A program made the position numbers and the translations under genes. Positions 6,161 to 36,830 of a stretch of 64,000 nucleotides of DNA are shown here, in pieces (positions within the stretch are counted from its first letter, which is position 1; each line of letters starts with the position of its first letter). The notes below the pieces were generated by a model. That model did no database searches. It was not told where the DNA came from and saw nothing but the letters and a program-made list of their open reading frames with translations. This DNA comes from an uncultured Bacillota bacterium (GTDB lineage Bacteria; Bacillota_I; Bacilli_A; RFN20; CAG-288). The stretch is from the NCBI GenBank assembly GCA_949282275.1, contig CASDOO010000020.1, positions 4,965-68,964 of the forward strand, written 5' to 3'.

Positions 6161-6403
6161 TAGTGAATCCCTATTGGAAACCTCCCGGAAAGGATTTTTG
6201 CAACCTAGCACACTTTTCTGTTCTAATAGAAACTTGCTCAATATTTAGAGCAAGTTGCCTAAAAGGATGTTTATGATTGGAAATTCGTGTTTTTTGAAAT
6301 GAGTATGCGAACGATGAGAAGAAGTTTAAGGTGCCTTGCGAATCTGCGTTAGCAATCATAGATAACTAATATGAAAAAGATTATTTATTCCAAACTTGTT
6401 AGG

Positions 6404-7750: not shown

Positions 7751-8051
7751 AAGACAAGGCCTCCTATAACACTTTTTCAAGGGAGTTTCTAAATGTCTCA
7801 GATTTATTGATGATGTTACCCGCATTTTAATAAAGACATACAAATCCGTCCCGTGTCTTCAGAACAACAGCGGCTATCCGTAATCCGTGGTTTCACTGAA
7901 GGGCAAATGGGGGCACGTCATGGACAAAAGGTTTATGCATTTGCTTTGGGAATTGACGTCTGGTATTGGTCGACTTTCGGTTATGTAGTAAACGTATTCA
8001 TAAGATACCGGAACTTAAATTCAGCAACACCTTCAAGCAACCCTGAAAATG

Positions 8052-15243: not shown

Positions 15244-15915
15244 ATGAAGGGAAACGATTATCAGGCATTCGTCTTCGACATGGACGGGACGATCGTCTCT
15301 TCCATCGAGGATATCGGCGATGCGGTCAATTATTCCCTTGCCTTCCATCACCTTCCGATACACCCCATGTCGGATTTCCCGGGCTATCTCGGAAACGGCT
15401 CCGTGAAGCTTATCCAACGGGCCTTGGGAAAGGAACATCAGGACTGTTTCCAGAAGGTCTTCGATACCTACTATGCCTATTATCTCGAGCATTTCTGCGT
15501 CAAGACGCATCCCTATGAAGGAATCGTCGAAAGCCTAAGCTGTGCCAAGAAGGAAGGCATCCTTCTTTTCGTCTATACCAACAAGCCCGAGAAGATAGCT
15601 CTCGAGGTGGCCGACAAGTGCTTCGGGAAGGGGTTCCTCGATGGCCTTGTCGGAATACCCCTTGGCGGCAAGGTCAAGCCCGATCCGGAAGCCTTTGTCG
15701 AAAGGGTCATGAAACCCTATCATCTCGATCCAAAACGTTGTGCCTACTTCGGGGATTCCGTCACCGACATCTTGACCGCCAGGAACCTTTCCATCGAAAA
15801 GGCCTATGCCGTTTCTTGGGGCTATGTTCCAAGAGAAAGGCTTCTTGAGTCGAAACCTTATCGCCTGCTTGAGAACCCACTTCAGATCAAGGACGTAGCC
15901 CAAGGACTTCTCTAG
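15244..15915 (+). CDS. HAD-family phosphatase (phosphoglycolate phosphatase-like)
   Basis: 'FDMDGT', 'TNK', 'KPDP', 'GDSVTD'. Confidence 0.85.
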   Translation: MKGNDYQAFVFDMDGTIVSSIEDIGDAVNYSLAFHHLPIHPMSDFPGYLGNGSVKLIQRALGKEHQDCFQKVFDTYYAYYLEHFCVKTHPYEGIVESLSCAKKEGILLFVYTNKPEKIALEVADKCFGKGFLDGLVGIPLGGKVKPDPEAFVERVMKPYHLDPKRCAYFGDSVTDILTARNLSIEKAYAVSWGYVPRERLLESKPYRLLENPLQIKDVAQGLL

Positions 15916-18479: not shown

Positions 18480-20086
18480 GATTGGGCCTCCTTTTCATAT
18501 CGCAGGAATAGTTTCTCCGTCTTCAGGAAAAAGAGCAGGAAAAGAACTCCGGAAAGAATTAGGAGAAGAATCAGCGCACAGAGATAGAACGTCAGGACGC
18601 TTTGACTGTTGAAGGGCTTCAGGAGGGAAAGAAGGAAGGAAAAGGCAAGGAAAATAACGGGAAGGAGGAAATCGACGACGAGCGAAAGGAAATCGCCTTT
18701 CTTCATCCTCAAGTCCAAATGGATCGAGGAGAAGGAGAGGGCAAGAAGGAAGACAAGGCCGATGGGAAGGAGGAAGGCAAAGGAAAGGGCGGAAATCTCG
18801 TTCGTCGAGACCAACACGATGATGGCGACAAGATAGGAAACAGCGGAGAAGAGGAAGGGGACGAAAAGCTTGACCAGGAGCTGCTTTCTCGGGGATACGG
18901 GCAAGGTCTTCATCGTAACGATGTTGTTTCCTTCTTTCTTCAGGGAAAGGGAGGAGGTGGCATTGATGACGGCAAGGAAGAGAAGGATCAGAAGGGAATC
19001 CATAAACAAAAGGAAGTTCGGAAAGAGCGTCTGGATGAAGCTGAGGTTTCCCGTATGGAAGATGACGTTGATTGCCGAGACGACCAAATAAATCAGGAAT
19101 GGCTCCACGGCAACAAGGGAAATGAAGGAAAAGAAGCCATCGCTTCGGCTTAGGACAAGGGAGAGCTCCTTCTTGACCAAGGCCATGAAAGGCGTGTCCA
19201 ATGTGACAGGAAGGACCAGGAAATCCTTTCTCTCCTCCCCCTTTACGCCTTGACGATAGTAACGTTCCAAATAGGGATAGAAGATAGGTAAGGAAAGAAG
19301 GGGAAAGCCAATCGTCATCAAAAGGAACCAAAGGAAGGCGATGGCGCTTTCCGTGAGCAAAGTCTGGGAAAGAAAGGATGTCGGGACAAGGTATCGGGCG
19401 ATATGGGACATGGATTCCATCCTTTCCGTGGTGAAGAGCATGTCCAACGAGGAATTCTGAATCAGATCGACGAAGAGACCGAGGAACAAGGAATAAAGAT
19501 AGGCAAGAAGGAAGGAGATGGCGATGGTAAAGAGGAAGGCAAGGATGGGATAGCGCTTGAGGAAAAGGTAAAGGACGCGGTAAGGAAGGAGGAAAAGAAG
19601 GGCAATGCCAGTCAGAAGCACGGCGAACAAAGGAAGGAAAAGCAGGAGAAGGAAATAGAAAATACCACCGCTTCCGGATTCGGCACCATAGACGATGGAT
19701 AACGGAAAATAGGTGATGAAAAGGAACAAGGCATTTCGAAGAAGAGAGTAAAGCGTTTTTGAAATAAGAATATCCTTCCTCGATACGGGCCTCGATCCCA
19801 GGATTATCCTTTCCTTCTCGTTTTGGAAAAATGTCTTGTGCATCGTCGGGACAGCAAAGACGATGCCGAGAACAAAGACGAAGAAGAGGACGAAATCGTA
19901 GAAGGAGCGGTTGAATCCGGAATAGATGGCAAGCTGTCCATAGAGCCTGTCGTAGACGAAACAGAGGATGGTCACGAGAAGTCCGGCAAAAAGGACGGTC
20001 GATGCTATCGACAGGATTCTTTTCGTGCCGCGTTTATGGAAGACGGAAGAGGAGAACAGTTCCCGCTTAAATAACGTCCGGATCAT
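18476..20086 (-). CDS. ABC exporter permease (duplicated multi-TM)
   Basis: About 12-14 TM; twin motifs 'SRPVSRKDILISK' and 'TLPVSPRKQLLVK'; coupled to the ABC ATPase. Confidence 0.75.
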   Translation of the reverse strand: MIRTLFKRELFSSSVFHKRGTKRILSIASTVLFAGLLVTILCFVYDRLYGQLAIYSGFNRSFYDFVLFFVFVLGIVFAVPTMHKTFFQNEKERIILGSRPVSRKDILISKTLYSLLRNALFLFITYFPLSIVYGAESGSGGIFYFLLLLFLPLFAVLLTGIALLFLLPYRVLYLFLKRYPILAFLFTIAISFLLAYLYSLFLGLFVDLIQNSSLDMLFTTERMESMSHIARYLVPTSFLSQTLLTESAIAFLWFLLMTIGFPLLSLPIFYPYLERYYRQGVKGEERKDFLVLPVTLDTPFMALVKKELSLVLSRSDGFFSFISLVAVEPFLIYLVVSAINVIFHTGNLSFIQTLFPNFLLFMDSLLILLFLAVINATSSLSLKKEGNNIVTMKTLPVSPRKQLLVKLFVPFLFSAVSYLVAIIVLVSTNEISALSFAFLLPIGLVFLLALSFSSIHLDLRMKKGDFLSLVVDFLLPVIFLAFSFLLSLLKPFNSQSVLTFYLCALILLLILSGVLFLLFFLKTEKLFLRYEKEAQS

Positions 20087-20834
20087 TTTCCTCTTCCTTT
20101 TCCTTGGCGTTTTCCAGGAAGTACTGGTTGAGATGGTAGCGTTCCCTCGGGTTTTCTTTCAAAGAGAAGATCTTTTGGATCGTTCCCTTGTTGATGATGG
20201 CAACCCTGTCGCACAGACGGGCGATGAGGTCGATGTTGTGGCTTGCCACGAAGACGGTCTTGTCGTGATCGGCAAATTCCCGCATCATCCGGCACAGCTC
20301 GTTGGACGTGAAGGCATCCAGTCCAACGGTTGGTTCATCAAGAATCCAGATCTTCGGGTTGTGAATCAGAGAGGCAATCAAGCAGAGCTTTTGCTTCATT
20401 CCGTGGGAGTATTCCTTGATTGGTCTATAGAGATCGTTCATGGAAAGATCGAGACGTTTTGCCAAATATTCGAAATTCGTCTTGAAACGATTCTTGTTTA
20501 TCCTGTAGATGGAGGCGATGAATTCCACGTAGCCAAGCCCACTCATCTCCTCATAGCTTGTCGGTTCGCTCGTGACATAGCCAAAGGTTTCCTTGGCCTT
20601 GTTGGCTTCCTTGCGGATATCAAATCCGCCAATCTGGATCGTTCCGCTTTGGAAATCCTTGATTCCGATGGAGCATTCGATGGTGGTTGACTTTCCGACG
20701 CCGTTCTTTCCGATGAATCCGAAAAGCTCGCCTTCATAGACATCAAGGTCTATACCCTTAAGGACTTCATGTGTTCCGTAGCTCTTGTGGAGGGAGTGGA
20801 TGGCGATTGCGATATGTTTTTCTGCTTCAGGCAT
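20067..20834 (-). CDS. ABC transporter ATP-binding protein
   Basis: GKNGVGKS, 'YSHGMKQKL', 'ILDEPTVGLD', 'ASH'. Confidence 0.92.
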   Translation of the reverse strand: MPEAEKHIAIAIHSLHKSYGTHEVLKGIDLDVYEGELFGFIGKNGVGKSTTIECSIGIKDFQSGTIQIGGFDIRKEANKAKETFGYVTSEPTSYEEMSGLGYVEFIASIYRINKNRFKTNFEYLAKRLDLSMNDLYRPIKEYSHGMKQKLCLIASLIHNPKIWILDEPTVGLDAFTSNELCRMMREFADHDKTVFVASHNIDLIARLCDRVAIINKGTIQKIFSLKENPRERYHLNQYFLENAKEKEEENDPDVI

Positions 20835-23679
20835 TTTCAGCAGCTCCTTTGAGAGTCCAAACGTTGTTTGAAAAGCTTAACGAGTATAGACGTGTTCGAG
20901 AATCACCAGTATCTCCACCTGCGTAACGGTATAAATATGTTGTGGCAGTGTTGCCGTTTATTGAATCTTGGACATAAACAAAACTTCCTCTGTAAAAAAC
21001 ATTAATCGGCCGATTGAAAGTTAACCCGTCACCATAGTCTGTGCCGTTGATAGAAATATAGTTTCCGTTGTTGGTTACTTGGAAAAAGGAACCAGAAAGA
21101 TCGTCTGGGGAATCGGCGGATGTTTGAAGATTCACTGTACCATAGAAATTGGCTTTATTTGTTTTGTCCCATGAGTGTGACCAAGAATAATCAGGAATAA
21201 ATGCATAGGTTGATGTTCCATTGTCAATCAAACCAGTGATTGAGTCATAGTGATATTCCGGTTTGTTAGACAAAGAAATTCCAGCGGATGATTCTGGGGT
21301 AACGCTAGATGAGGAAGAACCGCCCACAACGGAATAGTCGACTGTCGTTACATCAACCAACACTTCGCGTTCTGTGTTCATTAGCGGTGGTGTATAGAAC
21401 CCTCGAACATAGAAATAGTTTTGCCCTATGGATGTCTTTCCAGGAGCCGTGTTTGGTCCAAGCATAAAATAATTACCAAATAAACTAACCTTTCGATGAG
21501 AAGAAATAGAATTCCAGTCATTTATTGATCTTCTGAAGGCGGACATGTTTTCAATATCCATCATGCCCCCAAAACGAAAAGAATGGTACATAGGTATGAG
21601 ATTATTAGAAGAGTCCCGATTTTCTCTAAATATAATTTTTCCATCGAAATCGGCATAGGCAGGAGTTGCTGCAAGAGATTTCCAAAGAGGCGCATAGGAA
21701 GAATTCGAGAGGAGATTCGTGTTTCTTGCATCATAGAGAGGATAATTTGTTGTTCCAGGTTCGGAATAATAAAAGGTGTCCAGAAAAGTCAATCCACCAA
21801 CGCTTTGGTATGTCTGATAATCAATAAATGAGTCGTTGTTTGTCATTAAATCTGCCGAAGAATAGGAAAGAATCAAATTGCTATTTCTATCAAAATCCAA
21901 ATAGGAACCGGCCATAAACACGATTTCTTGGTTGAGATAAATCGTTGAATTTAAGATATGGGCTTTGAAATAAAAGGGCAGGAAAAACTGATATTTCCGT
22001 GAATCCATCGTAATATGATTTCCAGCGACATTAAAATCCAAGAGCCAGTTGGCAAAAGTCAATTCAGCATTTTCAATATAGTAATGGATTTCTTGATTGA
22101 ACAAGTCAGATGCATATTTTGTCAATGACTCGTTATAGCGGACATCTCGTATTATTTTCCCGTTTGATAGTTGAAGAAGGTTATTTTCTTCATTGGCGGC
22201 TCCTATAAATGAAACCAATCCGGTGACACCTAAACAGACATTTCCATTATTCCCAAGGCCTATATTGGTGATTCCGGCAAGATCAACCTTATATTCTCCG
22301 CTAAAATATGAGCCGGCATAAAAAACAATTTTGCAGTCCAAATAGGGGCATCTGTAGAAATTAAAAGGAGAATTGTTGTTGAAAAAAGATACTGGAGCCG
22401 ACATTGGGAGAAAAACATCCTCTATCACAAAAGGGGATTGAAGGCTGGAGCCAGGAAGCATTATAAGAGTTCCAAAAGAACTTGAATCGTTGAATCTTGA
22501 ACTATCGGTAATAGACCCATAGGAGATGATTTTGCTCCCATTGGGCATGATAAGATCATATCCGTTTAAGTCAATTTCACAATAATTGCCAATGATAAAA
22601 CCTTGATATCCAGATTGGGAAAAATCTAAGTTGTTGCCAAAATAGCCTGTGATTCCTCCCAACGTTATGTTAGCGCTGAAAATGATATCGTTTTGTAATG
22701 AAAAACGCGTGACACAATAGTTTCGAGAATAAGAGTTAGCAGACGAATTATATGTTTTGGTTCCACTATTTGAGGATGCGTTTTGATATTTATACGGGGT
22801 TCTTTTTGAAGAATCACCGCCTTCGGAGGAGTTGGCTTCGGGATTTGAAAGTCCTATCGTTGAATCTCCGCCATAGGAAATGAATTTGTCACTGCTATCA
22901 TGATAGCCATATCCGTTGGTTTGATTTTTAAGCCACGAGTCATCTTTATGTGATAATCTGTAATTAACAGAATTCCCCCGTGCCATATCAGCATCCCTTG
23001 TTTGTTTGACATGAGATGTCAAGAAATATTGCCCATTTGTAAAGCTTGGTGTAATGCCGGCATTTTTTTCCGAAGCCGTAATTCCCATCACCCTTGTCTC
23101 AACGCTTTGATTGTATCCTTCTGATGTTAGATGAATGATATTGTCCGGCGTTCCGATGAATTGTTCGCCGTAATCAAGTGTTTCGTCATAGGTGCTTTGT
23201 AGTGTTGTCGTCTGGTACGTGGATTCCGTTCTTGAGGCAAAGCTGGTATTGTTGGCACCCAAACAGCTGGCGCTTACCGTATTCGTATAATTCGCTGCCG
23301 TGCCTGTGAGAAGCATATCTTCCGTCACATCAATATGCTTGCTTAGGGACTGCCCGTTATAGGTGCCGCCGCTTGCCTTCCAGGAAAGATATTGATTGCC
23401 TGAGACATACATTGTGTTGGGGTCGTTGTTCGTGGCATCGGCAAGATCGGCCATGCTCAAAATATAGCCATCCTCAAAATAGCGTGTCGTTGTTTCTTCC
23501 GTGGCGGTGTTTTGGAAGGTAACCTTGTGGTAGTCCTTATTGGTATCCTTGTTTTCGTCGACATTGCTCACACCGGTTTCGGGACCATCTTCCTGAATCT
23601 GATACCCGGCATAGCCATTTGTGATAGGCATGATGAGGAAGGTCAGGAAGAGAAATGTTTTCAAGAGTTTCTGTTTCAT
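20827..23679 (-). CDS. Large secreted Asn/Ser/Tyr-rich protein, putative adhesin or fibre tip
   Basis: Signal peptide ending 'TNGYA|GYQ'; short InlB-B-repeat-like segment near the N-terminus; most of the gene is visibly more AT-rich than its neighbours. Confidence 0.6.
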   Translation of the reverse strand: MKQKLLKTFLFLTFLIMPITNGYAGYQIQEDGPETGVSNVDENKDTNKDYHKVTFQNTATEETTTRYFEDGYILSMADLADATNNDPNTMYVSGNQYLSWKASGGTYNGQSLSKHIDVTEDMLLTGTAANYTNTVSASCLGANNTSFASRTESTYQTTTLQSTYDETLDYGEQFIGTPDNIIHLTSEGYNQSVETRVMGITASEKNAGITPSFTNGQYFLTSHVKQTRDADMARGNSVNYRLSHKDDSWLKNQTNGYGYHDSSDKFISYGGDSTIGLSNPEANSSEGGDSSKRTPYKYQNASSNSGTKTYNSSANSYSRNYCVTRFSLQNDIIFSANITLGGITGYFGNNLDFSQSGYQGFIIGNYCEIDLNGYDLIMPNGSKIISYGSITDSSRFNDSSSFGTLIMLPGSSLQSPFVIEDVFLPMSAPVSFFNNNSPFNFYRCPYLDCKIVFYAGSYFSGEYKVDLAGITNIGLGNNGNVCLGVTGLVSFIGAANEENNLLQLSNGKIIRDVRYNESLTKYASDLFNQEIHYYIENAELTFANWLLDFNVAGNHITMDSRKYQFFLPFYFKAHILNSTIYLNQEIVFMAGSYLDFDRNSNLILSYSSADLMTNNDSFIDYQTYQSVGGLTFLDTFYYSEPGTTNYPLYDARNTNLLSNSSYAPLWKSLAATPAYADFDGKIIFRENRDSSNNLIPMYHSFRFGGMMDIENMSAFRRSINDWNSISSHRKVSLFGNYFMLGPNTAPGKTSIGQNYFYVRGFYTPPLMNTEREVLVDVTTVDYSVVGGSSSSSVTPESSAGISLSNKPEYHYDSITGLIDNGTSTYAFIPDYSWSHSWDKTNKANFYGTVNLQTSADSPDDLSGSFFQVTNNGNYISINGTDYGDGLTFNRPINVFYRGSFVYVQDSINGNTATTYLYRYAGGDTGDSRTRLYSLSFSNNVWTLKGAAENA

Positions 23680-23684
23680 GGTCT

Positions 23685-24476
23685 TTAGACTCCTTTCGAG
23701 GTGGTGATGGATAGAGTCACGCCAGAGAAGTCCGCCAAGGTCAGGTTTTCCATTTTGGATAGGTCAAAATCCAATACCAAGGAATACTTGTTCATGGTGG
23801 CGATATAAGTCGTCAGGACATCGGCGAAGGAATAGAGATAGTAGTCATCGGGAATGGTGGCACCGCCCAAGGTATGATCGGTGATGAGTACGGAAAGGGT
23901 GATTGTCTTGTTTGCGGTGTCTCCCTTGAGATAGGTTCTTTCGGTCCCGCTTTCGGAAATGCGATTGTTTTCCACATGCCAATTGGATAAAGGAAGGGTG
24001 AGATCCTCATTCGGATTTGAAATGGGCCGATATTGGAAATAGGCATCGGCATTGTCGACAAGGGCGTTGATGTCGACAGTGGCGCTTTCGGGGAAGGAAA
24101 AGACGAAATCGATCGTCCCGGTGCATCCAGCATTTCCGCCAATTGAGTTGTTTATCTGTGCCAAAACGACAGATGCCTTTTCTGTAGTCGTGAAGGAAAT
24201 GGTGAAATTGTCTTTATCAGTACTTCCTATGCCATCGGTATCAATCGTGTTTTGCAAATCCATCAATTCGTTTCCGTCGGAATAATAGTGGATTCCTTCG
24301 CAGGATATGGTCGTGAAAAGATAGTTGAGATAGCTTGGGACAGTTGTCACTTGTATGGCTCCAGGGTTTGTGCTTGCGCCGGAGATGTTGCCTGTCACGG
24401 AAAAAGCGGCAAAGGAAACGGACATGGTCATGAGGATGCCGGTAGCCAGAATCAAAGACAATGTCCTTTTTCTCAT
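23685..24476 (-). CDS. Secreted protein with SipW-type signal peptide (minor fibre subunit candidate)
   Basis: MRKRT + hydrophobic core + 'SVSFA|AFSV'; Thr/Ser-rich beta-type mature region. Confidence 0.6.
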   Translation of the reverse strand: MRKRTLSLILATGILMTMSVSFAAFSVTGNISGASTNPGAIQVTTVPSYLNYLFTTISCEGIHYYSDGNELMDLQNTIDTDGIGSTDKDNFTISFTTTEKASVVLAQINNSIGGNAGCTGTIDFVFSFPESATVDINALVDNADAYFQYRPISNPNEDLTLPLSNWHVENNRISESGTERTYLKGDTANKTITLSVLITDHTLGGATIPDDYYLYSFADVLTTYIATMNKYSLVLDFDLSKMENLTLADFSGVTLSITTSKGV

Positions 24477-24478
24477 GT

Positions 24479-25615
24479 TTAGTTCTCCTCAAAGCATGCG
24501 AATAGCCTTGTGTATTGTTTTGTGACAGGAGTCAGGTCCGTGAATTTCCCCGCCCTAGGATCGTTAGGCCCTTGGGCGGAGGTGTACCATCCGATGAAGG
24601 TGGCCCCGTCCTTGGAAGCGGTCGGTATTTGGCTGATGTCGAGGCTTTCTCCCTTCAGACAGGTGACCCGGGAAAGATAGGAGCCATCCAGGATGCCGCC
24701 ATTCGTCGTGGCATCGAACTCGACCGTGCAGGGAATCGTCTCATTCTTCAGATTTGCGATGAGATCCCAAGTGAAACCATTGAAAAGATAGATGGCAAAG
24801 TTGGTGAGGTCATAATAGAAGTCGCCCTGCTTTGCCTGCATGGAAATCTCGAATGTGGGTTCGCCGTTCCCGCTGAACCACTTCGTCGATTCGGGCATCG
24901 GGAATTCCAGGACGTCGATGTTTTCCTGATTGGGGTCATCGGTATATGTGACATAGATGTAATAGGTTCCGTTGGCGCTTTGAGTCGTGATGCTGGAAAT
25001 CCCTCTTCCGTCCTCGCCGTCGTTCCCCTTGATATACGGTATTGTGATTGTTGTCGGGTTCTTGCCTTCGTCGGTGTAGGAAATGGTGATCGTCGTGTTT
25101 CCTTCCTCGTCTCTCGTGCTTTCGATGTTCTCGATTCCGATGCCATCCTTCCCGTTCTGGAGAACGAACTGTTTTTCCGTGCCGTCCGTCAGGCGAATGG
25201 TGACCGTTGTCGTTTCGGTGGTGCTATCGAAGTCGGTAAGGATTTCCTCTATGCTGACGGCATCTTCAAGTTCGATACGCTCCTGTTCCATCGTCTCGTC
25301 CGTGAAGGTGATGACGAGATAGGTCTTCCCGGTTTCAGGGTCGGTAACCTTCTCGATCTTTTCGATTCCGTTGCCAATTGGTCCCTGAGGTCCCATTTCT
25401 CCATTCTCCGGCGCAGGTATGGTGAATTCGACAGGTTGGTAATAGTCATCGGTGAAGGTGATGGTAATGGTGGTGTTCCCTTCCTCGTCCATCTTCGTCG
25501 CGATGTTCTCGATCTGCATTCCGCCATCGTCAAAGAAGGACCCGCAGGAGGTCAACGGCAACAGGAAGAGGAAGGCAAGGATGAAGAGCCTAAGACGTCT
25601 AAAGATTCTTTTCAT
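24479..25615 (-). CDS. Lipoprotein with tandem beta repeats, short G-x-y linkers and a C-terminal InlB B-repeat-like domain
   Basis: Lipobox LTS|C; repeated 'IENI...EEGNTTITI.(F/Y)TD' units; 'GKDGIG' and 'GNDGEDGRG' linkers; 'PTASKDGATFIGWYT'. Confidence 0.7.
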   Translation of the reverse strand: MKRIFRRLRLFILAFLFLLPLTSCGSFFDDGGMQIENIATKMDEEGNTTITITFTDDYYQPVEFTIPAPENGEMGPQGPIGNGIEKIEKVTDPETGKTYLVITFTDETMEQERIELEDAVSIEEILTDFDSTTETTTVTIRLTDGTEKQFVLQNGKDGIGIENIESTRDEEGNTTITISYTDEGKNPTTITIPYIKGNDGEDGRGISSITTQSANGTYYIYVTYTDDPNQENIDVLEFPMPESTKWFSGNGEPTFEISMQAKQGDFYYDLTNFAIYLFNGFTWDLIANLKNETIPCTVEFDATTNGGILDGSYLSRVTCLKGESLDISQIPTASKDGATFIGWYTSAQGPNDPRAGKFTDLTPVTKQYTRLFACFEEN

Positions 25616-26717
25616 GTTGGCCTCCTATCTTCAGGAATGGAACGTTCGTGACGAAGTCAATGCCATCCTCTTCTTCCTGGATGTTGGCATGGCAGAGAGG
25701 ACAATGGCCGTCAATCGCCGGGGAGTGGCAGATGGGACAGATGCCATCCTTTTCTCTCTTGGTCAGTGCCGTCCAGGAGACGATGAAGGAAAGAAGATCG
25801 TTGACTTCGAGGAAGGAGAACGTCCTTTCGTCTTTTCCGTTTCGGATCGTCAACGCCGGGAAGAAGAAACTGAAGCCGACTTCCAAGGCATAGAGAGTCT
25901 TCTTGTCGCCATGACGGATCTCGATTGTCATATCCTCGTCTGTCCGGAGCCTGTACTCCATTCTTCCGTCTGTTCCGACAAGGAATCCGTCTTTCTCCAC
26001 GGCATGGAGTCTTTCGTGGAAGAGGGCAAGGAGGTTCTTCCGGAATTCTTTTCTCATGAGTCTTCTTTCGTCTTGTCTTCTGAGGAAGAAGTCGAGGCAG
26101 GTTCGGTAATCCTTCTGCTCCATGAGAAGATTTGTCGGTTCGACGCTTTCGAAGGGACGGAGAGGGATTCCCATTCCATCGGCGGCCTTCTTGAGGAATG
26201 CTGCCTTTCGATAGAGGGCAAAAAGGTTGTTCGTGATATCTTCCGTTCCCCTTTTTTTGGAATCCTCATCCTTGAGAAAGTCGTCAAGGAGACGGATCGT
26301 TCCATAGGGGCCATAGGAGATACCGTTCTTAAGGAAGGGGAGGAAGGAATCGCCCCTGCGGATGAAATCCAATGCCTTTTCGGAGTCCTTTGCTATTAGG
26401 CTGAGGACGAAGAGGGCAAAGCGATTCTCGTAGGTATCAAAACTCTCCTCCGGCATTTCGTCATAGGCTTTTTCAAGGGACAGCCTTCCACTGGAATCCC
26501 GTCGGAAGAGCCGAGGATCCCGATAAGTCTTTTCCATGAGGGAGCGGTCGTAGTGTCGGATCTGCTCGATTCGGGAAAGCTGTTCCGAAGCGAAAAGGCG
26601 AGATTTCTGGAGACGAAGGATATTCTCGATTGCCTCCAGGACGAGCCGATGATTGGCAAGCCTGTCCTTTATGACAAGGGGGCTATCCCTGCCATCGGAC
26701 TTTCTTTCCGCGATCAT
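25599..26717 (-). CDS. McrC-like/DUF2357-like protein with C-terminal CxxC-x8-CxxC zinc ribbon
   Basis: 'ESFDTYENRF' and 'PTNLLMEQKDYR' resemble DUF2357 motifs; ATGA-coupled to the McrB-like gene; 'CPICHSPAIDGHCPLCH'. Confidence 0.65.
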   Translation of the reverse strand: MIAERKSDGRDSPLVIKDRLANHRLVLEAIENILRLQKSRLFASEQLSRIEQIRHYDRSLMEKTYRDPRLFRRDSSGRLSLEKAYDEMPEESFDTYENRFALFVLSLIAKDSEKALDFIRRGDSFLPFLKNGISYGPYGTIRLLDDFLKDEDSKKRGTEDITNNLFALYRKAAFLKKAADGMGIPLRPFESVEPTNLLMEQKDYRTCLDFFLRRQDERRLMRKEFRKNLLALFHERLHAVEKDGFLVGTDGRMEYRLRTDEDMTIEIRHGDKKTLYALEVGFSFFFPALTIRNGKDERTFSFLEVNDLLSFIVSWTALTKREKDGICPICHSPAIDGHCPLCHANIQEEEDGIDFVTNVPFLKIGGQHEKNL

Positions 26718-28606
26718 AAACCGATCCTCTGGATTGTCCTTTCGATCTGCTTTCTGGAAAGAGAGAAAGATTCCTTTCCGTAGAGGGCATCGATCTTTTC
26801 GAGAAGACGCCTCAAGGAGAGGCCAAGGGAGGAATCCATCCTTCCTTGGAGTTTTCTTAGGACCTTTGTGGCAAAGAGGTAGTCGAGGAGTTCCTCCTTC
26901 TTTCTTCCCATTGCCTGATAGACGGGAACCATCTTGTCGATTTGACGAAGGAGACGGTTTCCGATGGCAATGGCGAATTCCGTTTCCATGAAGGCGAGCA
27001 AATCGAGGAAAGCTTTTCTATCGTTCTCATCGAAGCGAAGGTCCATGTCTTCTTCCGCCTTGGCAAAGAGGTCGCTTAGGCCATCATAGGAAAGCAGGAT
27101 GGGATTGACATCCTTTTCGACCACGATTTCCCGTTGATAGTTCTCGAAATCGATGACGATGGCACGGTCGATGACCTTGTCCGTGACCGTATAGGTCGAA
27201 TCGTCCTTGTTGCACGTTCCGACGAAGTAGGTGTTGGGAAGGAGGTCGATGCATCCATTGCGAAGATGCCTTGGGCAATCGTAGTCATCCGGAAGCGAGA
27301 GAAGGGGAATGCGTCTTTCGTCCTCCGGGAATTCCAGGACGGAAAGGAAGTCGGCGAAGTAGTACTCGACACGGGAGATGTTCATCTCGTCGAGGACCAT
27401 CAGGTTGAGACGGCTAGAAGAATAGGACGCCTGGTAGAGCCTTCTTAGGAAGGGTGTCTCCATGTATTTCCTCGTGAATTCGTTGTAATAGCCAAGAAGG
27501 TCGGATTTCTCTTTGTAGGTCACTTGGATTGATTCGAAGAAAGCTTCCTCGCCGATGAACTTGGCAAAATATCTTGGGAGGGAGGACTTTCCGGTTCCGG
27601 AGATGCCTTCCAGGATGATGAGATGGGTGGCATTCATCGCCGAGACAAAGAGGGCAAGCTCCTTTTTCTCATAGAAGAGATGTTCTTTCTTCGCAAGATA
27701 GGCCTGCAAGTCATCGATGAGAGAGGAAAGGGTAATGTTGGGACTATCCATGGCGACGAAGTTGGCCGATACGTTTGCCTCGTCAATCTGTGAGAGGGCG
27801 GGGAAAAGCTTTTCCTTTTCGGGAAGGACGACCTCGTCATGATTTTCTTGAGTTGGAACAACCTTTAATTCAATTGGTGAATCGCTTGCGATAGTTCCTT
27901 CTGTAGGGTCGTTTTTCCCGGATGAATTGGCTTGAACTGTCGTTTTTTTGGAATCAACTTCCCCGAAGGAGGAGACGACATCCTTTCCATCATCCTGAAG
28001 TTCACCGGGTTCTTCCTTTTCCTCTTTCTCGATTTCCTGCCTTTCCTTCTCTTCTTTCCTGATTTGCTCCTGGCTGTAGCTTGTGAGATTGACCTTGGCA
28101 AATCCGATGCAATAGACGCAGATACCGATGAGCGCGAAGACGAAAAGGCCAAGGATGACGAAGAAGAGGGCGGATAGGACAATGACCTGACTGACGAAGG
28201 TCATCGTCGTCGGATAGCTATCCATGCCGACGGCAAGATGGAAGAGGCTTCCAAGGCCGAGGGAGAGGGCGACTGCGACAAGGAAGGCGATTCCATAATA
28301 AAGCCATGCCTTTCTCGAATAGACCTTCTCGCCGTGACGCCTCATCCAATACATGATGTAGCAACAGGCCATGTCGAAGAGGACGATGTAGACAAGGATA
28401 AAGATGAGCATCAGCCACATGATCGGCGTTGCCGCAATTGCCGGGAATCCGAAGAGGGCTCCCAGTGCGGCAATGGGATTGGTCCTGGCAAAGATCGTAT
28501 AGCTTGCATCCAGCCCGAAGGCCGTGACCAAGGCGATGACGGCATAGAATACCGCTAGGCATATGCTCAGCTTGTTGGCCCTTGTCAGCTTGTTCTCCAT
28601 AGTCAC
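26714..28606 (-). CDS. McrB-family AAA+ NTPase with N-terminal multi-TM domain
   Basis: 'LIILEGISGTGKS' (Walker A), 'DLLGYYN', 'VLDEMNISRVEYYFADFLS' (Walker B), 'GTCNKDDST..VTDKVIDRA' (NxxD signature); about 4 TM helices in residues ~10-170. Confidence 0.85.
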   Translation of the reverse strand: MTMENKLTRANKLSICLAVFYAVIALVTAFGLDASYTIFARTNPIAALGALFGFPAIAATPIMWLMLIFILVYIVLFDMACCYIMYWMRRHGEKVYSRKAWLYYGIAFLVAVALSLGLGSLFHLAVGMDSYPTTMTFVSQVIVLSALFFVILGLFVFALIGICVYCIGFAKVNLTSYSQEQIRKEEKERQEIEKEEKEEPGELQDDGKDVVSSFGEVDSKKTTVQANSSGKNDPTEGTIASDSPIELKVVPTQENHDEVVLPEKEKLFPALSQIDEANVSANFVAMDSPNITLSSLIDDLQAYLAKKEHLFYEKKELALFVSAMNATHLIILEGISGTGKSSLPRYFAKFIGEEAFFESIQVTYKEKSDLLGYYNEFTRKYMETPFLRRLYQASYSSSRLNLMVLDEMNISRVEYYFADFLSVLEFPEDERRIPLLSLPDDYDCPRHLRNGCIDLLPNTYFVGTCNKDDSTYTVTDKVIDRAIVIDFENYQREIVVEKDVNPILLSYDGLSDLFAKAEEDMDLRFDENDRKAFLDLLAFMETEFAIAIGNRLLRQIDKMVPVYQAMGRKKEELLDYLFATKVLRKLQGRMDSSLGLSLRRLLEKIDALYGKESFSLSRKQIERTIQRIGL

Positions 28607-29505
28607 CTTTCACTTTCCGGAAGAGCTATCCTTTCCTTGTCGATGAGAAGATAGCTTTCCCCTTCATATTCCTTTTCTTCGTTGTAATCGTATTCGCCTT
28701 CCTTTACGACCAATGTCCCGTCTTCCGAAACGATCTCATATTCCTTTGCTTTCCCTACTTTTTCGAAAAGCATTGCCTTCCGTTCCTCTTCCTTCTTCTG
28801 CTGGATACGCATGCACTGATCATAGAGGATAAGGACATAGAGGATTCCGCAGAAAGCAAGGATGCCATAGTTGGATTGGACGAAGAGGACGAGGATTCCT
28901 AGCTTCGGTATTCGGAAGTGCGTGTAGACACCGACCAGATTGTCCATCGTCACCATGGTCGGATCGCTCGTATCGTTGGCATCGCCTCTCGTGACAAGGA
29001 AATTCTCCTTCTTTTCGATGACCCGGTGGACGATTGGTCTTCCTTCCTCATCAATATAGCAAACGATGTCGTAAAGCTGGATTTCATCCAAGGAGTCGAC
29101 ACGTCTAACGGCAATCATGTCGTTGACCTGAATCTGGTCATTAAGATTATTTTTGAAGAGATAGTCGTTTCTTTCGTTCTTCTCCGACATGGAGCCTGTC
29201 ACGATGACCATCGTCTCATATGGAAGATGGAAGGCATTGATGACGCGGGTCGTCAGAGAAAGAAGGAAGAACAAAGATAAGACGATTACAAGAACATCCA
29301 GAAGGATGCCGGCAATCTTGCGTATCCTCCTGGATGTCCGATTCTTCTCTTTTTCTTCTTCGAGATGCACTCCGTAGACAAGATAGGCATCTCTTTTCCC
29401 TTTCTTCACTTCCTCGATACTCTTTTTGACATAGTAGATAAGCAGGCAGGTCAAGCCGGCAAGAAAGAACAGCGTTATGGCGAGGACGATCCAAAAGAGG
29501 TTCAT
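28603..29505 (-). CDS. sipW: Signal peptidase I, SipW/ER (S26B) type
   Basis: 'VTGSM' catalytic Ser, 'IVHRV' His, 'TRGDAN'; flanking TMs. Confidence 0.85.
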   Translation of the reverse strand: MNLFWIVLAITLFFLAGLTCLLIYYVKKSIEEVKKGKRDAYLVYGVHLEEEKEKNRTSRRIRKIAGILLDVLVIVLSLFFLLSLTTRVINAFHLPYETMVIVTGSMSEKNERNDYLFKNNLNDQIQVNDMIAVRRVDSLDEIQLYDIVCYIDEEGRPIVHRVIEKKENFLVTRGDANDTSDPTMVTMDNLVGVYTHFRIPKLGILVLFVQSNYGILAFCGILYVLILYDQCMRIQQKKEEERKAMLFEKVGKAKEYEIVSEDGTLVVKEGEYDYNEEKEYEGESYLLIDKERIALPESER

Positions 29506-29519: not shown

Positions 29520-30128
29520 TTAAGCGGTGGCGTCAGTGACCGTAACGACAAATTTAATCGTTGTTGCCTGAAGAGCTGTGTTGAAGGCATTCATAGCAGT
29601 GCTAATTGTTTCCTTGTCTTCTTCGGCAGAATAGAAGGCAACAGGATCGGTGTTACCGAATTTTTCACCCCAACCAAAAGTAAAGGTGTAGTTGAGAGAT
29701 TCGGCAAAGGTCTTACTCAGCGAGGTTGGATCGGGAAGAGTGATGTAGCCTGAGGTTACTGCATTTCCTTCTCCATCAGCAGAGACCGTGACGGTAATGT
29801 TCTTTCCCGATAAATCTTCGCCTCCAGTGGCAGTGACATCAATTTGAAGATCTAAGTTGGCCTCCGGGATTCCGTCATATTGGAGAACCGCATTGTCCGT
29901 ATCGGCTGTGGTAGGATAGAAGGCTAATTTCTCGTTTTCATGAATGGTGGCAGTGATGTCATAGCTTTCGTCCACAATGATGACTGGTTCAAGCTGAGTG
30001 TCTCCAGGGTTGGTGATGTTGGTATCGGCGAGAACGTATCCGGCAAACGCAGCCGTGCCGACTCCGGCAAGCCCGAACAAGAGACCGAGGGTGAGGAAGA
30101 GTTTCTTCCGATTCTTCTTCTCCTTCAT
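29520..30128 (-). CDS. Secreted acidic Thr/Ala-rich protein with SipW-type signal peptide (TasA-like major subunit candidate)
   Basis: Lys-rich N-terminus + 'GVGTAAFA|GYV'; first gene of the operon, strong AAGGAGG SD; adjacent to sipW. Confidence 0.65.
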   Translation of the reverse strand: MKEKKNRKKLFLTLGLLFGLAGVGTAAFAGYVLADTNITNPGDTQLEPVIIVDESYDITATIHENEKLAFYPTTADTDNAVLQYDGIPEANLDLQIDVTATGGEDLSGKNITVTVSADGEGNAVTSGYITLPDPTSLSKTFAESLNYTFTFGWGEKFGNTDPVAFYSAEEDKETISTAMNAFNTALQATTIKFVVTVTDATA

Positions 30129-30408: not shown

Positions 30409-31170
30409 TTAGTCCAATTTTGAATGATTCCGTCGAATCCATGGATAGATGCCCCATTCGATGGGATCAGGTTCGTAGTAGCGGAAGAGAGAACGGTTGA
30501 TGGTATAGAAGGCAAAGGAGAGGAGGATGGCCAATGCCAGGATGAAGACCGTCGTTAGGCTTTGGACAAGAGGGGAGACTATCATCTCCGGGAAGATATA
30601 GCTAAGCAATGTTCCGTCGACCATCTTGAGGACGACGTAGCTTCCTTTCGGGATGCCGGGATAGAGGATGTCTTCCTTGACGAGATAGGCAAAGAGAAGG
30701 ACAAGGAGGATGCCTGTCGTGGAATAAAGCAATGCCCGTTTCTTGTAGCGCCTTATGCCAAAGAGCATGACAAGGCCGCAGAAGAGAAGGAGACCATGAA
30801 TTACCATGCCCTGGATGATCGTGAACTCGTCGAGTCCGGACATCATCGAGTCTGGACTTGCCATGGCACCGATGAAATAGCCAATGGCACAGACCGTGGA
30901 AAGGAAGCCGGCGAAGAACTGAAGCTGCGGAATGCCGGAAAGAAGGATACCGGCCTGGGTAAAGTAGGCGATATGGCTGATTTCGATGGGATAGACCGAT
31001 TGGCCGTCGATGGCATAATAGGAAAACTGGATGGCACGATAGATGCCAAGCGAAAGGGCGACGATGAAGACGATAGGAAGGGCGATGCGTCTCTTCATCA
31101 AAGGAATGGACAAAAGGGCAAGGACAAGGAAGATGCCGATGATGAGGAGGCGATAAGACATATGATCCAT
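30409..31170 (-). CDS. Integral membrane protein (YwaF/TMEM164-like)
   Basis: About 7 TM; 'YPIEISHI' and a later 'HG' resemble the family's conserved positions. Confidence 0.55.
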   Translation of the reverse strand: MDHMSYRLLIIGIFLVLALLSIPLMKRRIALPIVFIVALSLGIYRAIQFSYYAIDGQSVYPIEISHIAYFTQAGILLSGIPQLQFFAGFLSTVCAIGYFIGAMASPDSMMSGLDEFTIIQGMVIHGLLLFCGLVMLFGIRRYKKRALLYSTTGILLVLLFAYLVKEDILYPGIPKGSYVVLKMVDGTLLSYIFPEMIVSPLVQSLTTVFILALAILLSFAFYTINRSLFRYYEPDPIEWGIYPWIRRNHSKLD

Positions 31171-31420
31171 AATGGCACTCCTTTTTCAATGAAAGCACAA
31201 AAACGAAAGGATGGAAAGGAAAATCATGAATCCCCAACAATCCAAAACGGAGATTCCGAAATGAAATATGGAAAACGAAAAGAACGAAAATGACGATAGC
31301 ATCCGCATAAATCAGCCTTTCCCGAAAACAAAGAAGGAAATCCATCATGACGGCAATTTCCTTGTTGCAACATCAAGAGGGCGACATTAGAATATTTCCT
31401 AATAATTTGAGAGGTTCCAC

Positions 31421-31996
31421 ATGATCGTAATCACAGGACCGTCGGCTTCCGGAAAGACCGCAACGTGCCTCTTCCTTCAAGCCCATTTCGGAATTCGCAA
31501 GGTCGTCACCCATACGACACGTCCGCTGCGTACTGGGGAAAAGGACGGCATCGACTACCATTTCGTCGACAAGGAAGAATTCCTGAGGATGAAGGAAAAC
31601 GACGAATTCGTCGAGACGGTCTTTTACAATGGAAACTACTATGGAACCTCCCGCAAGGAAGTCCGCATCGACAAGTGCCTTGCCGTCGAGCTCAACGGCG
31701 CCAAGGTCTACAAGTCCCTGGATGACCCAAGGATCGTTCTCTTCTATCTTTGTGCCAACGAGAAGCAGAGAGAGGAGAGGATGAAGGAAAGGGGCGATGC
31801 CCCGGAGAAGATCGCTGCCCGTCTTGTCAACGACAGGGATGCCTTCCAGATGGACGAGGACATGAAGGAAATGGTCGATTGCTTCATCGATACGGAAAAG
31901 CATGACCTTGAGGAGGTCAGCCGCATCATCTTCGCCAAGTATCTCGAGATCCTCAAGGAACGGAACATCGAATTCCATCCGGATTGCCAGGACTAG
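31421..31996 (+). CDS. gmk: Guanylate kinase
   Basis: 'GPSASGKT', 'THTTRPLRTGEKDGIDYHF', 'YYGTS'. Confidence 0.9.
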   Translation: MIVITGPSASGKTATCLFLQAHFGIRKVVTHTTRPLRTGEKDGIDYHFVDKEEFLRMKENDEFVETVFYNGNYYGTSRKEVRIDKCLAVELNGAKVYKSLDDPRIVLFYLCANEKQREERMKERGDAPEKIAARLVNDRDAFQMDEDMKEMVDCFIDTEKHDLEEVSRIIFAKYLEILKERNIEFHPDCQD

Positions 31997-32040: not shown

Positions 32041-32562
32041 CAATGTTGGGAGATAAAAAGCAACCTCTTTCTAAATAAGATGAATGGAATAAGTATTAAA
32101 GACGATAAAAAAAGAAAAGAAAATCAAAAGCCGTACCGATAAAATACATAAATATCATGACATTGTTTTGTCAAACTATCTCTATTGGACAAGGAAAGTC
32201 CAATCCTTTTCGACCGGGATTCGGAGATGAACGATTCCTGGATGGCTGTTGTTGGCCATAGAAGCCTTTCCTTGGCGGATAGCAACCTAAAACTAAGAAT
32301 GTGGCTGTTTGGGAAACAACCTCCGTCAACTTGTACATTGTTTCGCGAAAATGCGACAAACACTTGATAAAAAGCTGCCTTGAACGCTGTCAAGCGAGGG
32401 AGAGATTTCTTTTTGGCGGCCCCTTTGCGATGGCTGAATCGGCAAAAATGGCTGATGGTTAGGCATTCTTTCCGCTAGCGCAGTCTTTCCTTGCTCGAAG
32501 TTGTTTCCACGTACCGGGTTGTTTGCGAAATGCGCCCTATAATGGGGACACAGGTGATCGAC

Positions 32563-33822
32563 ATGACAATACAGGACAGAGTGATTCTTGCCATCGATTT
32601 GAAGTCCTTCTACGCTTCCGTGGAATGCCTCTCCAGAGGACTCGATCCTTTCAGGACGCCCCTTGTGGTTGCCGATCTCTCAAGAGGGGACGGGACAATC
32701 GTCCTGGCTTCCTCGCCCTATATCCGCAAGAAATACCATGTCCCGTCCCGCTGTCGGCTAAGGGAGGTCGACAAGACGATTCCTGGATTGATCGTGGCAA
32801 GGCCGCACATGGAGACCTATCTGGAATACAGCGCCAAGGTGAACGCCATCTATCTGGACTATATCGACGAAAAGGACATGCATGTCTATTCCATCGACGA
32901 ATCCTTCCTCGACGTGACCCATTACCTCAAGAGGCATGGGGATACGCCGGAAAGCTATGCCCGGAAGATCATCGCCGACATCCGCCGCAAGCTCGGCCTT
33001 GTCGTTACCTGCGGCATCGGAAAGAACCTGTTCATGGCAAAGGCATGCATGGACATCGAGGCCAAGAAGAAAGAGGACTTCCTTGCCCAATGGGACTATC
33101 GGGACATTCCCGAGAAGCTCTGGCCTGTGACGCCCTTAAGCCGCATGTGGGGGATTGGGACCCGCCTTGAAAGGAGGCTCAATGCCCTTGGCTTCCATTC
33201 CATCGGGGACATCGCCATGGCGGACAGGAACTACCTCGTTTCCAAGTTCGGCGTCATCGGCGAGGAAATCTACTATCATTCCCTGGGCTATGACGACGCC
33301 CGGATCCAGGAGAAGTATGTGCCGAAGGAAAGTTCCCTCTCTGTCGGCGAGGTCCTTCTTCGGGACTATGGCCGTGATGAGATACCGCGCGTGTTGAACG
33401 ACCTTTCCATCGAGCTTGCCGACCGATTGCTCATGGAGGGGAAGAAGGCCAAGGAAATCCACGTCGGAATCGGCTACAAGGATCATGACGGCTATGCCTT
33501 TCGCCTTCTCTTCCAGGACCCCGTCGATTCGCCAAGTCCCATCGCCCGCAAAGCCATCCGCCTTTTTCTTTCCCGGAAGGAAGCAGAGGAGAAAAGCTAT
33601 CGGCAGGTCCACCTTGTCGCCGTCGATGTCGTTTCCGCATATTGCTATCAGGGAAGCCTCTTCGAAGACTACGAAAAGGAGAGAAGGCAAGCCGACCTGG
33701 AGAAGACGCTGATGACGATCCGGAAGACATACGGGACGATGAAGGCCATGCCCTGTTCGGCATTGTGCCTGGGTTCGACATTCATCCAAAGAGACAACCA
33801 GATAGGAGGACACCATCGATGA
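32563..33822 (+). CDS. Y-family DNA polymerase (UmuC/UvrX/PolY2-like)
   Basis: 'IDLKSFYASVE', 'YSIDESFLD', 'GIGKNLFMAK', 'WGIG', C-terminal 'IGGH'. Confidence 0.92.
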   Translation: MTIQDRVILAIDLKSFYASVECLSRGLDPFRTPLVVADLSRGDGTIVLASSPYIRKKYHVPSRCRLREVDKTIPGLIVARPHMETYLEYSAKVNAIYLDYIDEKDMHVYSIDESFLDVTHYLKRHGDTPESYARKIIADIRRKLGLVVTCGIGKNLFMAKACMDIEAKKKEDFLAQWDYRDIPEKLWPVTPLSRMWGIGTRLERRLNALGFHSIGDIAMADRNYLVSKFGVIGEEIYYHSLGYDDARIQEKYVPKESSLSVGEVLLRDYGRDEIPRVLNDLSIELADRLLMEGKKAKEIHVGIGYKDHDGYAFRLLFQDPVDSPSPIARKAIRLFLSRKEAEEKSYRQVHLVAVDVVSAYCYQGSLFEDYEKERRQADLEKTLMTIRKTYGTMKAMPCSALCLGSTFIQRDNQIGGHHR

Positions 33823-35412: not shown

Positions 35413-36671
35413 CTAGAAGTCCAGGCTGTATTCGTATTCGTTCATGAGAAAATCATAGATGCCCATTGTCGTTATTCCGTTCTCGTCTCTTGTGACATGG
35501 ATGACGTCTTTGACGACGATGATTTTCTTGAAGGAATCCTTTACGTTTATCAAAGGAAACTTTCTTGATGTTGTTTTTCGATAGTCGGCATGGAAAAGGC
35601 GGATTGGATGTAATAGCGTTTGCTTCCTAAATTGGCAATGAAATCAATCTCATAGGATCTTCGGACTTGTTTATCCCCAGCATAGGTCTCTCTTCTTTCT
35701 ACGACGCCAACGTCAACATTAAAACCTCGATACCGCAGTTCATTATAGATGATGTTTTCCATAAGATGATTTTCTTCTGTTTGTCGGAAACCAAGTCGGG
35801 CATTTCGAAGGCCTATGTCTTCGAAATAGAATTTCATTGGTGTCCCAATATGTTTTCTGCCTTTCACATCATAGCAATGGGCCTTGGAGATAATGAAGGC
35901 ATCCTCCAGACAATCGATATATTCTCTAATGGTATTGATACTTATTTTTGATTTCAAAACACTCTTGAATGTCTGTTGCATCTTAGGGGCATTGGACAAA
36001 GAACCGGCCTGTGAAGCCAAAATGTTGATTAGATCATCCAATTCTTGGCTTTTCAAAATGTGATGGTGTTCAAGGATATCTTTTATATAGGTCTCTTTGA
36101 ACAAATTTGTCAAATAATCAATTTTTTGTTTTTCGGACTTCATTGTCGATATAAGGGGCAATCCACCATATAGGACATAGTCCGCCCAGGCGTGATAGAT
36201 ATCTCCTTCATAAACCTGCATAAACTCTTTGAAGGTCAAGGGATAGACATGAATCTCGTCTCCTCTTCCTCGAAATTCCGTGATGATATTTTTTGAAAGA
36301 AATCTGGAATTGCTCCCGGTTACATAAATATCGACATTTGGTATATGAAGCAGGGAATTCAATACCTCCTCAAAATCGTTTAGCATCTGGACTTCATCCA
36401 ACAGAATGAAGTATTGCCCATTGTCCTGAATCAAAGATTCAAGATGTTCCAAAAGGATATCCGGATTTCGGTATTTTCTGTTCTTCCGCAAATCCAATTC
36501 GATTTTGATTATGTGGGAATCCGGGACGTTTTGGGCCAAAAGATAATCATAGAATAACTTGAACAACAAGTAGGATTTGCCGGATCGTCTAATGCCGGTT
36601 ATTACCTTTATCATCCCGTTGTTCATTCGGTTGATCAAATCCGTCAAATATCTGTGTCTGGCGATTTCCAT
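35413..36671 (-). pseudogene. AAA_14/DUF4143 ATPase with a frameshift near the C-terminus
   Basis: 'GIRRSGKS', 'LLDEVQ', 'YGGLP', 'EIDFIA'. ORF stops at 35550, but adding one base near 35562 restores 'EKFPLINVKDSFKKIIVVKD...DFL' to TAG at 35413. Confidence 0.75.
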
Positions 36672-36830
36672 GTCCCCCTTTTTTTGATTATTTTTGTCAG
36701 TTCTGCCGTTTTTAGTCAAAGTGACTTTGCTGAGGAATTTGGGTTATTGAATGGATTTTATTATGAATATATCAAACGTATTGTTTCTCTTGTGGATGAT
36801 GAGTCGGATATAAGGCTTTCTGGCACAAAG

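Follow-up and report, generated by a model that had tools for sequence, protein, structure and literature searches.

In McrBC the DUF2357 domain plugs the hexamer and stimulates hydrolysis, and in operons of the tapA-sipW-tasA type of Bacillus a dedicated SipW-type peptidase is encoded beside presumed secreted substrates; to our knowledge, none of the known operons of this type contains a McrBC-like module or an ATP-binding cassette (ABC) transporter. Here we analysed a gene located between a SipW-type signal peptidase gene and a gene for a McrC-like protein in a 64,000-nucleotide stretch of DNA from an uncultured Bacillota bacterium (contig CASDOO010000020.1, positions 4,965 to 68,964 of the forward strand; this whole stretch is called the window). 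The gene, at 26714–28600 on the minus strand, encodes a 628-residue transmembrane (TM) McrB-like nucleoside triphosphatase (NTPase), termed TM-McrB. Sequence comparisons place it in the NxD branch of McrB-like AAA+ GTPases as a member with a predicted membrane anchor, use of guanosine triphosphate (GTP) being assigned by homology. All coordinates are window positions, and all operon genes lie on the minus strand.

The NxD branch, with the pattern N-x-D-[D/E], has been described by Bell et al. 2024 (PMC11090510) for CoCoNuT and, briefly, for CoCoPALM. As characterized in that paper, CoCoNuT systems (CnuB/CnuC) contain long coiled coils and always occur with HEPN or other nucleases and with helicases. 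CoCoPALM is dealt with in one paragraph, its analysis being deferred by the authors to a later paper, and is presented there as an NxD GTPase with an FtsB-like single TM helix and coiled coil (HHpred E value 1.2), together with a SipA-like protein of a peptidase family.

Compared with that paragraph, the locus studied here shares with CoCoPALM an NxD-branch GTPase, an N-terminal membrane anchor, an adjacent gene of the signal peptidase family and a McrC homologue. It differs, by description only, in having four TM helices and a disordered linker instead of the FtsB-like single TM helix and coiled coil; moreover, the multi-TM forms make up a clade apart from forms with one to three TM helices, the peptidase keeps its Ser and His, and the operon is extended by transporter and surface-protein genes. 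With CoCoNuT, as published, it has in common the NxD(D/E) signature and McrC homologues that combine an absent or inactivated nuclease with a zinc ribbon, and soluble relatives of 650–870 residues form neighbouring clades in the NTPase tree. The HEPN domains, nucleases and helicases ascribed to CoCoNuT in that paper were, in contrast, not found among the scanned operon proteins. We regard the family as a CoCoPALM-related variant, set apart by description, whose new features are the four-helix anchor, the separate clade, the predicted intact SipW and the extended operon. Apart from Bell et al., our literature search found no paper in which McrB or McrC is connected with SipW, TasA or signal peptidase, and the name CoCoPALM was found in this sense only there and in the corresponding preprint; the one apparent further match proved to be an E. 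coli strain genotype.

The NTPase and its membrane anchor

An earlier annotation made from the DNA letters alone, the sequence-only reading, had placed a McrB-family NTPase in the open reading frame (ORF) at 26714–28606 (minus strand). This ORF is present and translates without stops. It reaches back to a GTG at 28606, but the probable start is the ATG at 28600, with GAAAGG located 6–11 nucleotides upstream and the stop codon of the SipW gene ending 2 nucleotides before it, and the resulting 628-residue product is identical to the database protein P0007. The protein consists of an N-terminal membrane domain (residues 1–166; 28103–28600) built of four TM helices, whose first outside loop carries a short conserved helix, an acidic, mostly disordered linker (residues 167–261; 27818–28102) with a conserved short motif around F212, and a McrB-like AAA+ NTPase domain with a helical lid (residues 262–628; 26717–27817). 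All motifs named by the sequence-only reading were recovered in the NTPase domain, i.e. Walker A (GISGTGKS, residues 332–339; 27584–27607), Walker B (LDEMN, residues 403–407; 27380–27394), NKDD (residues 464–467; 27200–27211) and a DRA motif starting at residue 478, with R479 at 27164–27166, and each of them is invariant across an alignment of 27 homologues (A1; 36–80% identity).

The family profile A1 was then compared by hhalign with a single comparator of each kind, E. coli K-12 McrB and the MoxR-type protein RavA of E. coli. McrB was matched with a probability of 84% (E value 7.5e-6) over 166 columns, and the alignment extends from Walker A through Walker B to the signature motif, where NKDD is paired with NTAD (residues 333–336) of McrB, N464 with N333, and R479 with R348. 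The probability for RavA, in contrast, was 8.9%, with 83 columns aligned around Walker A. As the adjacent gene encodes a McrC-type DUF2357 protein, we consider the McrB-like identity settled; the assignment to the McrB family thus holds, with no grouping of the domain outside McrB.

Next we asked how the signature motif is to be read, as the sequence-only reading had called it NxxD. Searched by HMMER with the NTPase domain (P0140), a set of 1.84 billion cluster representatives yielded 7912 proteins at E ≤ 0.001, of which 675 reached E ≤ 1e-30. The residue at position N+2 is Asp in 149 of the 150 best representatives; in the 145 of them caught by the pattern, position N+3 is occupied by D (108), E (33) or another residue (4), and the family-wide signature is N-x-D-[D/E]-S-T. 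With Asp invariant at N+2 and either D or E at N+3, NKDD is an NxD motif followed by D rather than a classical NxxD, although the ungapped hhalign register fits both readings alike. Hence the Asn-Asp motif is present as had been claimed, but in its NxD variant and not in the classical form.

A Kyte-Doolittle scan and an AlphaFold2 model of the 628-residue protein, with a mean predicted local distance difference test (pLDDT) value of 79.8, concur in four TM helices at about residues 10–30, 59–86, 98–121 and 136–166, so that the about four N-terminal helices and the charged linker noted earlier are upheld by topology prediction. Lys and Arg residues are enriched in the loops 1–11 (three) and 87–97 (five) as compared to 31–58 (one) and 121–135 (none), which, according to the positive-inside rule, gives a predicted N-in/C-in topology with a cytoplasmic NTPase domain. 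In the model a short helix (residues 42–49) is located within the first outside loop. Linker residues 167–260 include 23 Asp/Glu and 12 Lys/Arg; residues 195–256 have pLDDT values below 50 and are modelled as disordered, and a single charged helix (residues 177–194) is formed. Thus, four TM helices and an acidic tether stand where a DNA-recognition domain would be expected, in agreement with the membrane-tethered motor that had been proposed.

Two short motifs outside the NTPase domain are conserved in at least 90% of the 27 sequences, D31...N41-P-I in the outside loop (about 28450–28510) and D-L-A-x-S-F around F212 in the tether (within 27818–28102), and D31, N41 and F212 possibly mark candidate partner-contact sites. 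The homologues P0077 and P0105 carry a precomputed match to Pfam PF13858, presumably in the TM domain, for which the window protein stays below the threshold of E ≤ 0.01. An ESM Atlas search with the TM domain gave no usable match. PDB matches of the protein to enterotoxin H and to membrane proteins are confined to the low-complexity linker and the TM region and were rejected as chance.

The architecture is widespread. Among the matches listed in a word-index search, query coverage was at least 93% in 113 of 120 homologues, and a scan of one genome per species yielded at least 605 stretches matching a pattern and at least 564 species genomes with a relative, from which 80 loci were kept. The 77 family genes in these loci encode four hydrophobic segments ahead of the NTPase domain in 63 cases, five in 10, three in 3 and one in 1, so that 76 of 77 have at least three. 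Other arrangements occur as well: of the 150 best representatives 69 have no TM helix (mostly 650–870 residues), 35 have one to three, and 46 have at least four. We calculated a FastTree phylogeny of the NTPase domain with 147 rows, E. coli McrB being the outgroup on a very long branch; 5 of 151 rows had been filtered out because Walker A was not matched, was preceded by less than 60 residues, or belonged to a domain of under 300 residues. The multi-TM forms share a clade with support 100, to which they contribute 46 of the 47 rows; the forms with one to three TM helices make up a separate one (33 rows; support 99), and the soluble forms are split into three further groups. The presence of the multi-TM forms in a single clade indicates that, on this tree, the four-helix anchor is the product of one acquisition and was then retained. 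A one-off fusion, the case in which the idea of a TM-McrB family would have failed, is ruled out by the same tree and by the segment counts.

The McrC-like partner and the operon

The partner gene (25599–26717), which is translationally coupled, starts within the NTPase gene, overlapping its stop by 4 nucleotides, and encodes 372 residues comprising DUF2357, a beta-rich domain and a C-terminal CPxC...CxxC zinc ribbon. DUF2357, the N-terminal domain of McrC, is matched with a Pfam E value of 5.5e-10. An ORF begins between −61 and +108 nucleotides from the NTPase stop in all 80 loci, and 78 of these downstream ORFs were aligned (A2). DUF2357 was matched in 48 of the 78, and a YENRF motif (residues 96–100), TN (residues 195–196) and the four zinc-ribbon cysteines (at least 99%) are conserved. 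The other Pfam matches common to more than two of the 78 partners are zinc-ribbon and zinc-finger families and RPA_interact_C (8 members), and no nuclease family is present among the 24 Pfam families matched. Within residues 212–326 of the partner alignment no column is at least 60% acidic or basic.

The structural model of the partner (pLDDT 88.1) contains long helices at residues 96–122, 140–181 and 202–237, and McrC chains account for four of the five top structural matches, with Z scores of 8.6, 8.0, 7.6 and 7.4. Foldseek gave no match of this model at E ≤ 0.001 and listed McrC at ranks 5–6 only. The beta-rich domain occupies the position of the PD-(D/E)xK domain of McrC and may be a degenerate nuclease remnant. 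Taken together, the comparisons show a McrC-type partner that, judged by its conserved residues, keeps the activator domain and the zinc ribbon and has no active PD-(D/E)xK nuclease. The pair thus resembles E. coli McrBC in that P-loop, Walker B, signature Asn and the Arg equivalent to R348 align, and in that an adjacent, overlapping gene, as in mcrB/mcrC, encodes a DUF2357 protein. It differs from it by the TM helices and acidic tether in place of the DNA-binding N-terminal domain, by the NxD(D/E) instead of the NxxD signature, by the lack of conserved PD-(D/E)xK residues in a partner that ends in a zinc ribbon, and by a context that is secretory rather than that of restriction-modification.

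The operon context was quantified by clustering the ORFs over 65 loci. The usual order is two to seven genes of a family of small proteins (fam0), SipW, TM-McrB, McrC-like protein, ABC ATPase, permease, an extracellular protein of about 810 residues and a lipoprotein. The McrC-like gene is at position +1 in 62 of the 65 loci; SipW is found in 56 (at −1 in 53), fam0 in 58 (138 genes), the ABC ATPase in 53, the permease in 54, the large extracellular protein in 48 and the lipoprotein in 49. A tblastn search with the window proteins over the 80 loci gave the same picture, with SipW in 74. SipW, McrB and McrC follow one another in a conserved order, their reading frames overlapping or almost touching, and this linkage is retained in relatives with as little as 34% identity and whichever of the two operon arrangements is present. 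In the second arrangement, which is that of the window and also of its closest relatives (L002–L008, L012 and L017), the genes for the lipoprotein and for proteins of 263 and 950 residues are located between the McrC-like and the ABC genes.

The gene upstream of TM-McrB (28603–29505) encodes a SipW/archaeal-type signal peptidase I of 300 residues, which has additional TM segments and, at its C terminus, a cytoplasmic tail; it scores above the TIGR02228 cut-off (59.7 versus 51.85 bits). Across 69 sequences S105, H160 and D181 do not vary, and D175 is present in at least 90%; we take S105 and H160 to be the catalytic residues, and the peptidase is predicted to be catalytically intact. The tail (residues 229–300; 28603–28818), which ordinary SipW presumably lacks, as judged by length, contains a semi-conserved [FY]xL[IV]SxxGxL-like element and an invariant R242.

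The first operon gene (29520–30128) encodes a fam0 member, a small protein of 202 residues whose N-terminal signal or anchor has an aromatic motif at its end. Proteins of the fam0 family have a length of about 250 residues, are encoded in tandem and have a mean column identity of 13%. An N-terminal hydrophobic segment is present in 160 of 163, and the aromatic motif at its end in 126 of 163, as compared to 0/59, 0/76 and 0/67 genes of three control families. A profile search of the PDB with fam0 gave nothing credible. A lead towards Peptidase_M73, from the nearest ESM Atlas cluster with a Pfam family (score 0.90), in which 22% of the members have this domain, was dropped since none of 80 fam0 proteins matches it in Pfam. 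The locus therefore resembles the tapA-sipW-tasA operons in having a SipW-type peptidase gene beside presumed substrates, but differs in that the small proteins have no match to the TasA/camelysin family; because of this, we infer rather than recognize fam0 proteins as SipW substrates or fibre subunits.

Downstream of the McrC-like gene follow genes for a lipoprotein (24479–25615; 378 residues, lipobox LTSC, weak match to a Listeria-Bacteroides repeat), a secreted or anchored protein of 263 residues without family match (23685–24476), a large secreted protein of 950 residues, also without family match, that has the same operon position in the closest relatives (20827–23679), an ABC transporter ATPase (20067–20834; 255 residues), a polytopic membrane protein, presumably the ABC permease (18476–20086; 536 residues), and a large extracellular protein of 855 residues with an N-terminal anchor (15912–18479). 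The latter is kept in relatives and has no known family; a profile of its own family had no match in the PDB, and Pfam and NCBIfam gave none either. Two promoter-like sites, at consensus level only, are located upstream of 30128, and a scan of the operon found no convincing internal terminator. The ORFs at 30602–31348 and 31373–31978 (both minus strand) are rich in His, Arg and Pro and have no family match, and the latter overlaps a guanylate-kinase gene on the plus strand (31421–31996). Owing to this odd composition, the missing family and the overlap they are probably not genes, and the operon most likely begins at 30128. Further upstream, and without evident link to it, are genes for a Y-family (IMS) polymerase (32491–33822, plus strand) and an AAA_14/DUF4143 ATPase (35550–36719, minus strand). 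Elsewhere in the window, positions 6001–8000 have a low G+C content (0.333 versus about 0.5 elsewhere) and contain an ORF of 389 residues (6404–7573, minus strand).

Distribution and short-form relatives

The genome that contains the window (1.5 Mb, 84% complete) has two copies of the system. The second copy (G000:C27:33567-34661, locus L084) is a 650-residue ORF with an NTPase domain 48% identical to that of TM-McrB, and is surrounded by SipW, an ABC ATPase, a large extracellular protein, two lipoproteins and fam0 genes. In a sample of 201 genomes from the same order, queried with the NTPase domain at E ≤ 1e-20, the domain was found in 128 genomes in any architecture, in 85 of the 140 high-quality genomes and, leaving out the window's own genome, in 36 of 44 genomes of the genus, with one to five copies per genome. 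As the query was the NTPase domain, these order-wide counts include the relatives with one to three TM helices. According to their source annotation, the loci come from uncultured gut Bacilli, Mollicutes and Acholeplasmatales-type organisms.

Shorter relatives of 450–550 residues with one to three TM helices are found in the same order (L085–L096) in two contexts. In one of them, a single McrB/McrC pair has SipW-like genes as neighbours, and in L094 and L096 EAL/GGDEF genes come next; in the other, tandem McrB/x/McrB/x pairs adjoin genes for transglutaminase-like, BspA-type leucine-rich repeat and 1741-residue proteins. These shorter relatives may be the published CoCoPALM type.

Proposed function and rival explanations

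The fixed linkage to a secretory and surface-protein operon leads us to favour, by a small margin over doubt, the view that a McrBC module was exapted from nucleic-acid restriction and now serves the membrane-proximal assembly or export of surface proteins instead of DNA restriction. The four TM helices and the flexible acidic tether of about 95 residues would hold the McrB-type NTPase at the cytoplasmic side of the membrane. By homology, the NTPase would form a hexameric ring that uses GTP and whose hydrolysis is stimulated by the DUF2357 protein, and, as suggested by the gene context, this ring would act at the membrane on a protein of a secretion or assembly pathway instead of on DNA. The module would then be a McrC-activated, NTP-driven remodelling or gating device that helps or controls how SipW-dependent surface proteins or fibres are processed, exported or assembled. 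The sequence-only reading had guessed that something other than methylated DNA might be the substrate, and this fits both the nuclease-less partner and the secretory context. A more specific version, in which GTPase and plug are the cytoplasmic engine of an undescribed membrane machine that includes SipW and the ABC transporter and serves to assemble or export a surface layer or fibres made of fam0 proteins, is put forward tentatively and strikes us as rather doubtful.

Several observations weigh against this exaptation. TM-McrB remains below the gathering score of 22 for Pfam AAA_5 (17.7 bits with the full-length sequence and 19.2 bits with the domain alone), searches of the PDB with the single sequence and with the profile did not have McrB among their matches, and the hhalign comparison of the partner family with E. 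coli McrC found nothing (probability 0.5%). As to the presumed substrates, a relationship to TasA/camelysin is not supported, with Peptidase_M73 in 0 of 80 fam0 proteins, and none of nine fam0 proteins scanned has a NCBIfam match at E ≤ 0.01. The long disordered tether speaks against a rigid mechanical coupling of ring and TM helices; the model suggests that it would provide localisation rather than rigid force transmission. Finally, the text of PMC11090510, as far as it deals with these systems, reports no experiment on any NxD-type McrB. The outcome of the structure search, the match to a candidate defence system and the patchy distribution belong here as well and are considered with the explanations that they favour.

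The main rival, which we nevertheless judge unlikely, is defence against phages or plasmids by a system of the McrBC/CoCoNuT lineage, where the TM domain would either be an effector replacing the lost nuclease, e.g. by membrane permeabilisation or abortive infection, or place the sensor where foreign DNA or RNA enters. The ancestry in Type IV restriction is in line with this explanation, and the loss of the McrC nuclease would call for another effector. Likewise, the patchy occurrence within one order at one to five copies per genome also fits an accessory or defence role, and the McrC-like partner evolves fast (mean column identity 27% versus 50% for the NTPase). In addition, PDC-M26A, a candidate-defence model of PADLOC, is matched by the NTPase core (E value 2.3e-38), with residues 266–437 aligned to profile positions 274–442 of 724 as best stretch (130 bits). 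However, all clades match PDC-M26A over the NTPase core only and with similar scores (123–158 bits), suggesting that none is a member of that system; PADLOC matched no other operon protein, and our literature search found no paper containing 'PDC-M26'. Moreover, the same secretory and surface neighbours recur in most of the 65 loci from different species instead of a variable defence island, both copies in the window's genome have the same gene set, and the scanned operon proteins include no nuclease, methylase/methyltransferase or nucleic-acid-binding family.

Clearly less probable is a MoxR-type chaperone ATPase that matures or inserts the ABC transporter or the peptidase, in analogy to RavA-ViaA or NorQ-NorD. 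A structure search (VIA-align) aligned E. coli McrB (6ut6_D) with a Z score of 14.7 (root-mean-square deviation 3.0, 183 aligned residues, 19% identity), whereas the best match by Z score was MoxR-type 2r44 (15.8; 275 residues including the lid, which aligns best with it), and RavA reached 13.5, with MCM (14.1) and dynein also in the range of 13–14. The structure search hence does not separate McrB from MoxR-type 2r44, MCM or dynein, and places the protein in an AAA+ clade together with MoxR. NorQ is among the best Foldseek matches of the NTPase model, two sources name homologues 'MoxR-like ATPase', and the remodelling of partner complexes by MoxR proteins is the kind of activity proposed here. 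At the profile level, in contrast, the similarity to RavA is weak and restricted to the Walker A region, while that to McrB extends through the signature motif, which is of the NxD(D/E) type; the partner is a DUF2357/McrC-like protein instead of a VWA protein, and no VWA family was found in the scanned operon proteins. Just as improbable is that the pair plays no role in the surface pathway and, as an unrelated selfish or regulatory module, only hitch-hikes between the genes for peptidase and transporter. In favour of this, the pair lacks the other conserved genes in the fetched stretch at L043, L073, L074 and L076; a complex prediction of NTPase domain and McrC-like protein with the cytoplasmic SipW tail as scored partner (score 0.01) speaks neither for nor against a physical link. 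The conserved gene order with its overlapping or near-abutting frames, its persistence at low identity in both arrangements and the SipW linkage of the independently anchored short-form clade all argue against such a module.

For a class with one published mention, which in that paper comes without analysis, our data add a description of the operon, the division into clades and predictions that can be tested. If exaptation for surface-protein assembly or export is true, the motor of a restriction enzyme has been reused for a job at the membrane or cell surface, which bears on the exaptation of AAA+ modules in general and on the extent to which matches to 'McrB-like' proteins or PADLOC candidates point to defence. 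Uncultured gut Bacilli with small genomes commonly carry the system, with the at least 564 species genomes found here, and the surface biology of these organisms is little explored; the more specific reading as a machine for fibres or a surface layer, if correct, would represent a new class of surface-structure assembly system in them.

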